Below are positions 39,811-59,447 of a DNA stretch of 64,000 bases, one piece after another. The DNA is taken from positions 64,001 through 128,000 of the forward strand of contig CM000436.1 in NCBI GenBank assembly GCA_000165345.1, in the 5' to 3' direction. How positions within the stretch are numbered: position 1 is the first letter of the stretch; every line of letters starts with the position of its first letter. The notes below the pieces were generated by a model that saw nothing but the letters and a program-made list of their open reading frames with translations, did no database searches and was not told the DNA's origin. The translations under genes were made by a program, and so were the position numbers.

Positions 39811-40000
39811 ATCTTTGAACTTTTTTTTAAAATACTCTTTCTATATTTTAGTTAAGCCTATCCATCAACACACGTCTAAATGAGCATTTCTTTCTTTCTA
39901 AATTATTCTCAATAATTGTTATTATCGCAAAATTTACCTTTCTACGTTAATTTAGTTTATTAATTTCCAATTAATCTGTGGGAACCATTTACATGCACAT

Positions 40001-40057
40001 GCCCGCCACATATTTGGCGGTAAACATATGAGATGGCCAACTCCGTGATTGGCGCCT
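40001..40057. promoter_or_regulatory. Cluster of three E2F-like boxes (GCCCGCCACATATTTGGCGGTAAAC ... GATTGGCGCCTAT) 190-250 bp upstream of the coiled-coil gene. GCATGC box at 40094-40101.
   Basis: Direct match. Confidence 0.5.
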
Positions 40058-55943: not shown

Positions 55944-56387
55944 TTAACATTTTTCAGAGTAACGATGGAGTGCTGATAGAAGATCATCAGGGGAAATGGC
56001 ATTATCTCCATCACCATCTAAGTTAGTTAACATAGTTTTTAATTCTTCCTCACTCATTGAAAGACCAAGTCTGGAAGCACATGCTGAAAGATCCTCAAGA
56101 TCTATTGTTCCAGTCTTCTTGATATCAAGGCAACTAAAGATATTTACAGCATCTTCAACAGTGAATTTTTTTATCTCATTTCCACTGTTTACAAGACTTA
56201 CAAATCCTGCAAAATCTAGTTTACCTCCACACTCCTGAGTTAGTGAGTTTAGTCTTCCAATGACTGTGTTATCTAATGGAATATCCATACACGTAGCTGC
56301 AGCTCTTAAGAACCCAACATCTAACCCTGATTTACCATCAAGTAAATCAAAAACATCTCTCAATTCTCTAACTTCAGTACTGTCCAT
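55944..56387 (-). CDS. EF-hand protein (calmodulin/myosin-light-chain-like; the EF loops look partly degenerate).
   Basis: 147 aa. Four helix-loop-helix units (DLLDGKSGLDVGFL; ...CGGKLDFAGFVSL; DIKKTGTIDLEDL; DGDGDNAISPDDLL). The last two loops are closest to canonical. Confidence 0.65.
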   Translation of the reverse strand: MDSTEVRELRDVFDLLDGKSGLDVGFLRAAATCMDIPLDNTVIGRLNSLTQECGGKLDFAGFVSLVNSGNEIKKFTVEDAVNIFSCLDIKKTGTIDLEDLSACASRLGLSMSEEELKTMLTNLDGDGDNAISPDDLLSALHRYSEKC

Positions 56388-56743
56388 TTTTTTTAAAATA
56401 AAATCAAACTGCCAATATTAGTATTAGTTTTCCTTGGATAAAGCCAAATAAAAGAAAATTAATAAAGCTCTGATATATAATTACTCTTTTTTTTTTTTTT
56501 TAAATCTTTACAAATACAACTTCCTTTATAATCTATTTATTACCTTGGCTTAAACAAATACAACAAATCTCGTCAGAAAATAATAATTCGCTTCCACTAT
56601 ATTCGTATTTTATTATTCTCCCTTCCCCTTTGCTCCTCTTTAATACTAAGCTTATATCTGAGATGCTTATATTTATACTTTCTCTTATTTTCCATGTATT
56701 GCCGTTTACATGTCTAATATTATGCACACTTTAATGATGCAAA

Positions 56744-56786
56744 TGTGGCGGCAAAAATGCCCGCCAGACATGCCATATGGCGGTAA
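56744..56786. promoter_or_regulatory. Triple E2F-like cluster TGTGGCGGCAAAAATGCCCGCCAGACATGCCATATGGCGGTAA. It sits in the bidirectional spacer between the EF-hand gene (minus) and the OB-fold gene (plus), 72 bp upstream of the latter's ATG.
   Basis: Direct match. E2F sites are classically upstream of DNA-replication genes. Confidence 0.55.
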
Positions 56787-56857
56787 TGGTGGGGAATTGT
56801 GTAAAAGATTAAAAGAGCTAATTTAGTAGAGAATATAAAGGATGGAAAAGAGGGATT

Positions 56858-57636
56858 ATGTTAGGTAGAGGAGAGGACAATGTGAATGATAGAGACAGTA
56901 ATAGTTTGGAAGATAGTGTGAACGGTTTAGTGGAGGATGAATTGGCAGAGATGATATTGCTGCAGGAAGTGTATGATTTAAGGTTGGAGAAAAAGAAAAT
57001 TAGAGTTGCTGGAATTGTAAAATCCGTGGACTTGATTGAGCAGGAGATTGCGATATTCTACGAGTCCAGAAGCTTAAGAGTGAGTTTGAGGTATGGATTT
57101 TAACTTATAAAGTGCATGGTTTTGGTGAAGGAAAGTAAATATATAGATAATAATTATTGAAAAAAAAAGAAATTAAAAGAAGGGGAGGAGCCATCGTAGT
57201 CAGGTGTGTAATAAGGATAAAAATAACCAATAACACGAGCAATGCTGGCGCCTTTACACGTCATTTCAATGTTTTTAGGTTTTAAACATTGTTTTACCAA
57301 AATCATGTATCATTTCCATAGAGAAAAAAAACTTTTTTTCTTCGAGTAGAAATGATTACTAGATTAATTATCTAACTTTAATATTAATTTATTTTTAGGA
57401 ACTTGAAAAAACCAAGGATTCAAAGCATAGAAAAAGGAAGTAAGGTGGAAGTTATAGGTTACATAATAAATCAGGAAGATTTCAATACATGCGAACTGAA
57501 AGAAAGCAAAACTAAGGGGAATTTGGTTATGATCGCTCAAGTAATAAGAAATATTGATGAAACTAATTTATATTTCCATCAATTAAGTATTATTTTACGT
57601 AGAAAAATACTAAATTCCGTGAATATTATATATTAA
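56858..57636 (+). CDS. Small OB-fold protein of the RPA/CST type (RPA3/Ten1/Stn1-RPA32-like), 156 aa. Two exons: join(56858..57090, 57399..57636).
   Basis: The two ORF-track pieces 56858..57103 and 57403..57636 (the second TTG-initiated) are joined by a GTATGG...TTTTTAG intron (308 nt) with matching phase (2+1 gives AGG). The product shows the OB-fold pattern of RPA32/Stn1: KKKIRVAGIVKSVDLIEQEIAIFYESRS (compare [25 protein letters not shown]) ... GSKVEVIGYIINQEDFNTCELKESKTKGNLVMIAQVIRNIDETNLYFHQLSII (compare [38 protein letters not shown]). It lies directly downstream of the triple E2F box. Confidence 0.4.
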
Positions 57637-57941
57637 AGGGTTATAATTTAATTAATTTTATTTTCTAATTGGTTTTTTTTTGCATAGCTTGTATCATATA
57701 TTAAATTATCAATAATAAATGGGTGTCTGCTAATTGATTCAATCCATTCAATCCATCTAAATAGGTAAAGAAAAAAGAGTTAATTTCAAAGTCAGATTTT
57801 GTTCAATTTTTTTTTTTATTAAATAATTTATGTAATCGTAATTATTATTGAATTACGTGTTTTTTGCATGCATGCAAAAAATAACGGTAATTAAATAAAT
57901 TATTAAAAAAAAAAATTGGTATTAGTGATCCCAAAGTAAAC

Positions 57942-59447
57942 TTACTTGTTATAGTTTTCTTCTGAAATAGTTGAATAGATTTTGGAGTAGATTGAGTTAA
58001 CTTTAAAAGATTCCATTTCTTTAACAAAATGGCAATCCTTAATATGAAATGAGAGAAATTGAATTGCAAAATCAGTTTGATCAGTGGAAATGCTTCTTTT
58101 TGTATTATATGAGTTATAAAAAACTCTATCTAGAAGAAGTCCTTGGCTTGGAGCTAAATGAATGGAAAATTTATCGGGTAAAAAACAAAGTTGAATTCCA
58201 TTGCTTGGAGCTGTTCCTCTAAAAATTTCTATAGCTAATGCTACCATTTTTCTTATTTGGTGCAATAGAAATGACTGGCCTTTAATTATAATCTTAATAA
58301 GGTTAATTTCCCCTTTAATTTCGTTTTGACTAACTTTTACTACTTTAATTTCTTCAATATGCCTCCAAGAAGTGGAATCTTCATAACTTGATTTTGATGT
58401 AAAATTATGAAAACTATGTGTACCAATATATTCATTCAAAATTGATTGAAATCTCTTTAAATCTTCATCTGATAAACTGAATCTCCTTTTTGGGTCTAAA
58501 TAATCCTCAATTTTATAATTTACCAACCTGTAATCATTTCCAAAACCATAGTTGTTGAGTCTATTAGTTTGATGAAATTCAAACTGTTTCATCCTCTCTC
58601 CTTTTTCATCATCCTCATCATCTTCTTCTCTTTCAACTTCTTCTTCGATTTCATTGACTTCAGGGTTATGGTTTAAACTTGTATTGATAGTTTCTCTTTT
58701 TCTTTTTTTACTTGCATTCTTTAATTCATTTAATCCTTTCTCAAATCTAGATAAGCTTGCTTTGTTAAGCTCTTCTTTGAAATCATCATTGTTAATATTT
58801 ACATGTTTAAGAAGAAATTCAGGCATTAAGTATTCGTATTGTCTTCTAGAACAATCTGTTCTGGCATCAAAATTCTTTGTTACTCTAAAAATCTTAAAAA
58901 CCTTAATTTTTGTTGATTCTAAAAGTTCATTGAGTTTAGTTACTATATAATCAAGAATCAATAATTCATCCAAAAATTCATCCAAATTATTTTTTAAAAC
59001 TAATGAAGCTCCTCCTAATAGAGGATTTATACTCTGAATTTTATCTACTCCATTCTTATTTAAAATATCTCTCTCTTCTTTAAGTCTTTTACAGATTTCT
59101 ATTATTTTTTCATCAACATCCTTATTCTTTAAAATAAGTTCTAACTCGTCATTTATTTTAATTTTAGCTCTAAAAGATACTACTTGACAAACTGAATGTA
59201 CCCCTTTATCAGTTCGCCCAACTCTAGACCACTTAATCTTCTTTAATAATCCTCCTTGATCATCATTTTGTTCATTACTTAAAAAAAACATACCAAGCTT
59301 CTCTAAACAATCTTCCATTTCTCCTTCAATAGTTCTCAATTCTTCTACCTTTTTATTATTTCTCATTTGAATCTGCATCCCATGATAATCTGATCCATCA
59401 TATCCAAAGGACATGCAATATGTTTTCATAGGGATTACCTCTTTCAT
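57942..59447 (-). CDS. tRNA pseudouridine synthase of the TruA family (Pus1-like) with an acidic insert.
   Basis: 501 aa. YCMSFGYDGSDYHGMQIQ; catalytic-Asp motif SRVGRTDKGVHSVCQVVS; conserved C-terminal FLLHQIRKMVA. Confidence 0.78.
   Translation of the reverse strand: MKEVIPMKTYCMSFGYDGSDYHGMQIQMRNNKKVEELRTIEGEMEDCLEKLGMFFLSNEQNDDQGGLLKKIKWSRVGRTDKGVHSVCQVVSFRAKIKINDELELILKNKDVDEKIIEICKRLKEERDILNKNGVDKIQSINPLLGGASLVLKNNLDEFLDELLILDYIVTKLNELLESTKIKVFKIFRVTKNFDARTDCSRRQYEYLMPEFLLKHVNINNDDFKEELNKASLSRFEKGLNELKNASKKRKRETINTSLNHNPEVNEIEEEVEREEDDEDDEKGERMKQFEFHQTNRLNNYGFGNDYRLVNYKIEDYLDPKRRFSLSDEDLKRFQSILNEYIGTHSFHNFTSKSSYEDSTSWRHIEEIKVVKVSQNEIKGEINLIKIIIKGQSFLLHQIRKMVALAIEIFRGTAPSNGIQLCFLPDKFSIHLAPSQGLLLDRVFYNSYNTKRSISTDQTDFAIQFLSFHIKDCHFVKEMESFKVNSIYSKIYSTISEENYNK

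Follow-up and report, generated by a model that had tools for sequence, protein, structure and literature searches.

A two-exon gene of Cryptosporidium parvum encoding a probable Ten1-family OB-fold protein, and its conserved upstream region

A stretch of 64,000 nucleotides (nt) from Cryptosporidium parvum (GenBank assembly GCA_000165345.1, contig CM000436.1, positions 64,001 to 128,000 of the forward strand), hereafter called the window, contains two short plus-strand open reading frames (ORFs) between positions 56858 and 57636. These ORFs form a real two-exon gene. We consider it likely that its product is an 18-kDa protein of the Ten1 family, composed of a disordered acidic tail, a five-stranded oligonucleotide/oligosaccharide-binding (OB) barrel, and a long C-terminal helix. 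The homologous locus tags end in "8g505", and the gene belongs to chromosome 8 of C. parvum. Ten1 is the smallest subunit of the CTC1/Cdc13-STN1-TEN1 (CST) complex, which resembles replication protein A (RPA).

The first ORF (56858-57103) starts with ATG and encodes 81 amino acids (aa), and the second (57403-57636) encodes 77 aa without an ATG at its start. In-frame stop codons precede the ATG at 56858, and no earlier in-frame ATG follows them. Joining 57090 to 57399 (donor GAG/GTATGG, acceptor TTTATTTTTAG/G) excises 308 nt, 57091-57398, and leaves a coding sequence of 233 + 238 = 471 nt, that is, 156 codons and a stop codon, whose product has a mass of 18.0 kDa. An earlier sequence-only reading of this DNA had proposed exactly this join, and its junction, phase, coordinates, and product length all proved correct. 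The intron is about three times as long as the mean C. parvum intron of 99 nt (PMC4637869). Another donor, GTGAGT at 57080, was considered and rejected; used with the conserved acceptor at 57399 it breaks the phase, and an open frame results only from acceptors within exon 2 (127-137 aa).

The orthologous loci of seven further taxa, namely C. hominis, C. meleagridis, chipmunk genotype I, C. ubiquitum, C. canis, C. ryanae, and C. andersoni, were compared with that of C. parvum. The results showed that a GT donor and an AG acceptor with a T-rich tract split the same codon in phase 2 in all eight species, with introns of 308 nt in C. parvum, 303 nt in C. hominis, 292 nt in C. meleagridis, 282 nt in chipmunk genotype I, 252 nt in C. 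ubiquitum, 191 nt in C. canis, 57 nt in C. ryanae, and 156 nt in C. andersoni. The position and phase of this GT-AG intron are kept among the orthologues, its sequence has diverged, and a polypyrimidine tract is present. Indels in the exons are all multiples of three, and the intron has many others. Furthermore, the ratio of nonsynonymous to synonymous substitution rates (dN/dS; Nei-Gojobori method) was 0.2-0.35 in every pair with unsaturated dS. Conserved splice sites, exon indels in multiples of three, and a low dN/dS are together the mark of a coding gene that is spliced and held under purifying selection. Synteny with other members of the genus, a check put forward by the sequence-only reading, is also kept, with the order SAS-6 domain protein, EF-hand gene (minus strand), Ten1-like gene (plus strand), and Pus1 gene (minus strand) identical in all species as far as C. 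andersoni.

An exact-sequence look-up recovered the 156-aa protein in at least four C. parvum GenBank records (KAL5366780.1, QOY39799.1, WKS79299.1, and WRK33795.1). The names given in GenBank are "hypothetical protein CPHLJ_8g505", "OB domain-containing protein", and, in some entries, "Telomere-capping CST complex subunit". The same gene model is found in C. hominis (including CUV07597.1), C. tyzzeri, and C. meleagridis, and in total eight species besides C. parvum have an annotated orthologue. The name cgd8_505 is not listed as such in the supplement of the 2015 re-annotation paper. The gene had been described from its sequence as unannotated and as possibly a missing subunit, and neither description holds, since the identical protein is already deposited and some of its entries are named as a CST complex subunit. 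The gene model and the Ten1/CST label are already public and, therefore, no new entity is added here; the sequence-only reading correctly arrived again at a gene that had been annotated but not characterised. On the other hand, the remark that it is easy to miss was fair, as several annotations mis-model the locus (Table 1). In the case of C. canis, a second assembly carries the homologous 146-aa model (P0016). The practical value of the present work is thus that of an annotation check on a locus whose gene model is cut short or wrongly spliced in the annotation of several Cryptosporidium genomes.

Comparison with Pfam returned a single family, Ten1_2 (PF15490, "Telomere-capping, CST complex subunit"). 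The C. parvum protein, for which alone score and cut-off are given, reached 35.8 bits against a gathering score of 27, with residues 30-150 aligned to positions 5-115 of the 117-position profile. All eight correctly spliced orthologues matched Ten1_2 at E<=10, the best with an E value of 2.2e-12. Judged by the profile that defines the family, the protein qualifies as a member of the Ten1 family. Profile-profile alignment with hhalign placed the Cryptosporidium family on a 12-sequence vertebrate TEN1 profile over 92 columns covering the barrel and the helix (E 7e-4), and on the single human TEN1 sequence over 41 columns (E 0.005); the human TEN1 and RPA3 sequences used for comparison are identical to the PDB chains 7u5c_G and 1l1o_A. 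In a joint MAFFT alignment, the invariant residues R49 and G52 fall on R27 and G30 of human TEN1, and the pattern A-x-[VI]-x-x-x-[ED]-G-M-N-[LI] is common to the C. andersoni protein and human TEN1, EAKIIRVTEGMNI standing opposite the human KARVLTCVEGMNL. Human R27 is presumably among the residues reported to contact STN1. Besides, the C-terminal helix bears an invariant S-x-x-LRRK motif.

The structure was modelled with AlphaFold2 on an alignment of eight sequences with identities down to 34%, giving a mean predicted local distance difference test (pLDDT) score of 72.8 and 84-92 in the core. With only five close sequences the output was all-helical at pLDDT 40, and the OB model was obtained once C. 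ryanae, C. bovis, and C. andersoni were added. The model contains a short helix, strands at residues 47-58, 63-68, 71-76, 93-102, and 120-129, and a helix at 135-154, with residues 1-26 and 106-117 disordered. Its only domain is one five-stranded OB barrel with a helix at the C-terminal end, which is the architecture of Ten1. Foldseek comparison with the PDB ranked Ten1 structures of human and Schizosaccharomyces pombe in all of the first six places (8d0b_C at 5.7e-8, 4joi_C, 3kf6_B, 3k0x, 6w6w_D, and 8soj_C, with E values up to 1.6e-6). The next places went to archaeal RPA14, Tetrahymena CST subunits, and RMI2, and human RPA14 was not reached until 8.5e-5. The solved Ten1 structures are accordingly nearer than other OB proteins. 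The single OB fold and the CST-type character that had been read from the hydrophobic pattern are both borne out, with Ten1 as the best fit in Pfam and Foldseek alike, and the fold predicted by the model can be regarded as established.

Several observations weigh against the Ten1 assignment. The protein shares only 16-20% sequence identity with any Ten1, and the hhalign probability for the match to the 12-sequence vertebrate TEN1 profile is just 26%. Profiles of the Cryptosporidium family matched no protein outside the genus in searches of 1.84 and 5.8 billion proteins, and gave no relevant match among PDB sequences; a mixed profile including human TEN1 gained vertebrate TEN1 only. No Cryptosporidium Stn1 or Ctc1 orthologue was identified, no proteome-wide search by family having been made, and the full-text literature searches made here gave no paper describing CST, Stn1, or Ctc1 in any apicomplexan. 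In addition, the predicted splicing is read from comparative data and independent GenBank gene models, and the exact spliced 156-aa product was not found in the Logan run assemblies.

The main rival is an RPA3-type small subunit, because the Ten1 and RPA3 families are close relatives in structure and are told apart by modest margins only. The protein would then be a second RPA14-like protein that completes a Cryptosporidium RPA complex, on CpRPA1A or CpRPA1B, and not a CST component. We regard this as unlikely. The RPA3 family of Pfam, Rep_fac-A_3, was matched by none of the eight orthologues at the threshold at which all of them matched Ten1_2, and hhalign aligned the Cryptosporidium family with human RPA3 over 15 columns only (E 0.025), as against 92 columns with the TEN1 profile. 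Moreover, C. parvum is reported to have a single, separate RPA3 of about 12 kDa, CpRPA3 (PMC12427563, a secondary source), compared with 18.0 kDa for the Ten1-like protein. Some other small OB adaptor with a C-terminal helix, for example an RMI2-like protein of a RecQ/Top3 complex, or a lineage-specific Ten1 look-alike, is quite improbable, as RMI2 ranked below all Ten1 and RPA14 entries in Foldseek and the above-threshold Pfam match is specific to Ten1_2. Finally, the notion that there is no gene, and that the ORFs are AT-rich noise in a neighbour's untranslated region (UTR), 5′ for the EF-hand gene or 3′ for Pus1, could appeal to the shortness of each ORF by itself and to the end of the Pus1 coding region only 11 nt away, which requires the Pus1 3′ UTR to overlap exon 2 in antisense, but it is hardly credible and is effectively refuted by the comparative data, given a frame, splice sites, and intron phase kept across eight species with saturated synonymous sites, dN/dS below 0.35, the Pfam match above threshold, and the confident OB-fold model.

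If the protein acts as a Ten1 subunit, its role can be proposed by analogy. As in yeast, human, and Tetrahymena Ten1, the barrel and the C-terminal helix would pack against the N-terminal OB domain and helix of a Stn1/RPA2-like partner. The resulting complex might bind single-stranded G-rich DNA, help DNA polymerase alpha-primase to fill in the telomeric C-strand, and help to restart stalled replication, as its counterparts do. Transcription probably starts from a compact bidirectional promoter common to this gene and the EF-hand gene. Whether Cryptosporidium keeps a working CST-like complex, consisting of Ten1 paired either with a highly divergent, unrecognised Stn1/Ctc1 or, as a hybrid, with an RPA2-like subunit, seems to us an evenly balanced question. 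Such a complex, if retained, would for the first time open the maintenance of the telomeric C-strand to study in an apicomplexan, and a Ten1 homologue without a described Stn1/Ctc1 partner is a starting point for understanding how apicomplexans finish telomere replication.

The region upstream of the gene contains three E2F-like boxes, with TGGCGG/CCGCCA cores at 56746, 56761, and 56778, and a G-box. Together they occupy the interval from 112 to 64 nt before the ATG, the last box ending 72 nt from that codon. TGGCGG on either strand occurs 20 times in the window versus 2.84 expected, a number reached in none of 100 shuffles. The three boxes and the G-box keep their position in six intestinal species and can still be recognised in C. 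ryanae; the comparable module of C. andersoni (ACATG...TGCACAC...GCGCCAA...TGGCGCCA) adjoins the EF-hand gene instead. The triple box 72 bp upstream of the ATG, as first noticed from the sequence, is thus present, enriched, and conserved. Its description as the densest E2F cluster stands only in part, as 56746-56778 is the only TGGCGG triple within 40 nt in the window, whereas with the broader core GGCGS/SCGCC a cluster at 39997 has four and is denser. The C. parvum E2F motifs have been defined as DTTGSCGCCH / TTTGGCGGGAAV (PMC3734150). Box 1 (GCGGCAAA) alone fits the strict consensus TTTSSCGC; boxes 2 and 3 fit the GGCGG core only in C. parvum, and in some species they are canonical GCGGGAA. 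The G.GGGG motif is bound by the ApiAP2 protein cgd8_810 (PMC3734150).

On these sequence grounds, the three boxes appear to be real regulatory candidates, and the divergent EF-hand gene, the Ten1-like gene, or both may be under their control. The further argument that an E2F cluster points to a replication or telomere-maintenance factor is weak, even though the boxes are real and conserved, since such motifs are widespread and the EF-hand gene has the same promoter region. Clusters that together hold 2,379 of 3,281 C. parvum genes have E2F-like motifs over-represented in their upstream regions, and no characteristic expression pattern goes with them (PMC3734150). The motifs are also the dominant ones in open chromatin, a large part of which lies at bidirectional promoters (bioRxiv 10.1101/2025.01.17.633476). 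Because such motifs precede most C. parvum genes, the boxes say little about a replication or telomere function, and an E2F factor would be a putative regulator of the Ten1-like gene.

Two further E2F-like arrangements were observed. At 39997-40057, a dense cluster consists of ATGCCCGCCA, a short spacer, TGGCGGTAA, and then GGCGCC; this arrangement matches that of 56757-56787, which suggests a recurring composite site built on an inverted pair. Within the intron of the Ten1-like gene, at 57245-57265, a semi-conserved GGCGCC is followed by TTTACACGTCA. This E2F-like core could be an internal or antisense promoter element, and it is not universal, because the C. ryanae intron has just 57 nt.

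Next to the boxes lies a 61-nt non-coding block (Table 1), which is unique within the window and degenerate in C. ryanae. It is better conserved than the adjacent coding sequence, because it is near-identical in six species whose synonymous sites are saturated. The block holds an inverted ACATG pair (CATGTA-N8-TACATG) together with TTTACAT and TGCACAC, which match the over-represented Motifs 7, 8, and 9 (ACATGY, YTTACAT, and HTGCACH) of a published survey (PMC3734150). A non-coding RNA was considered as well. The block and the E2F boxes can be folded into a long stem, in which the block pairs with the box 3/G-box region (z -2.7), and Rfam gave no RNA family in 56300-58000. The six-species alignment showed no covariation or compensatory change in the stem, and the varying positions break pairs; therefore, the non-coding RNA reading is not supported. 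We regard the block as a probable composite cis-regulatory element within the divergent promoter.

On the downstream side, the convergent Pus1-type gene has an intron of 189 nt (57945..57757) and encodes 536 aa, equal to the C. hominis and C. meleagridis annotations, with 484-546 aa in other species. As the convergent stop codons are 11 nt apart, the 3′ UTRs of Pus1 and the Ten1-like gene must overlap and be mutually antisense. A TGCATGCATGCA palindrome at 57866-57877 in the Pus1 intron is a doubled AP2_1-type GCATGC motif, and it is roughly kept in chipmunk genotype I and C. canis.

Table 1. Features of the Ten1-like locus and divergent gene models in other annotations. Positions are those of the window, except where a locus identifier precedes them.
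Feature	Position	Strand	Description
Exon 1	56858..57090	+	233 nt; acidic, poorly conserved N-terminal tail (residues 1-29), short helix, beta1-beta3; ends in phase 2
Intron	57091..57398	+	Spliceosomal, 308 nt, GTATGG...TTTATTTTTAG
Exon 2	57399..57636	+	238 nt including TAA; beta4, variable loop (residues 104-118), beta5, C-terminal helix
61-nt non-coding block	56682..56742	.	CTCTTATTTTCCATGTATTGCCGTTTACATGTCTAATATTATGCACACTTTAATGATGCAA; almost invariant in six intestinal Cryptosporidium species (alignment)
Three E2F-like boxes	56746..56787	.	TGGCGGCAAAA (56746-56756), CCCGCCA (56760-56766, inverted), TGGCGGTAAT (56778-56787)
G-box GTGGGG	56789..56794	+	Invariant in six species
EF-hand protein gene	55944..56387	-	147 aa; divergent, shares 470-nt promoter region
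Pus1-type pseudouridine synthase gene	main ORF 57942-59447	-	Convergent neighbour
Pus1 last exon	57756..57648	-	Stop codon 57650..57648
Mis-model, C. hominis TU502			Exon-1 ORF only, 81 aa (P0019)
Mis-model, chipmunk genotype I	L004 3001-3303		Read-through of donor into intron, 100 aa (P0005); homologous sites give 156 aa
Mis-model, C. ryanae	L006 3001-3528		In-frame 57-nt intron retained, 175 aa (P0012); homologous sites give 156 aa
Mis-model, C. canis OJ253	L003 3001-3632		Non-homologous splice sites, 134 aa (P0004); homologous sites give 146 aa

Among known systems, Tetrahymena p19/Ten1 (7UY5_J), part of the telomerase-associated p75-p45-p19 CST (p45 in 5DOI and 7UY7_B), shows no detectable sequence similarity to the Cryptosporidium protein. 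RPA3/RPA14 (PF08661, Rep_fac-A_3; 1L1O_A, 2PI2_E, and 8AAJ_C) has the same fold and is a close structural neighbour, and by analogy it would have the same architectural role, with its C-terminal helix in a trimerisation core; it differs in the lack of a Pfam match in all eight Cryptosporidium orthologues and in a weaker profile alignment than that of TEN1. Compared with TEN1 of the CST complex (human 4JOI_C and 8D0B_C; S. pombe 3K0X), to which its identity is 16-20%, the Cryptosporidium protein is longer in two places: an acidic tail of about 29 residues is added at the N-terminus, and beta4 and beta5 are separated by a variable insertion of about 15 residues (residues 104-118, low pLDDT).
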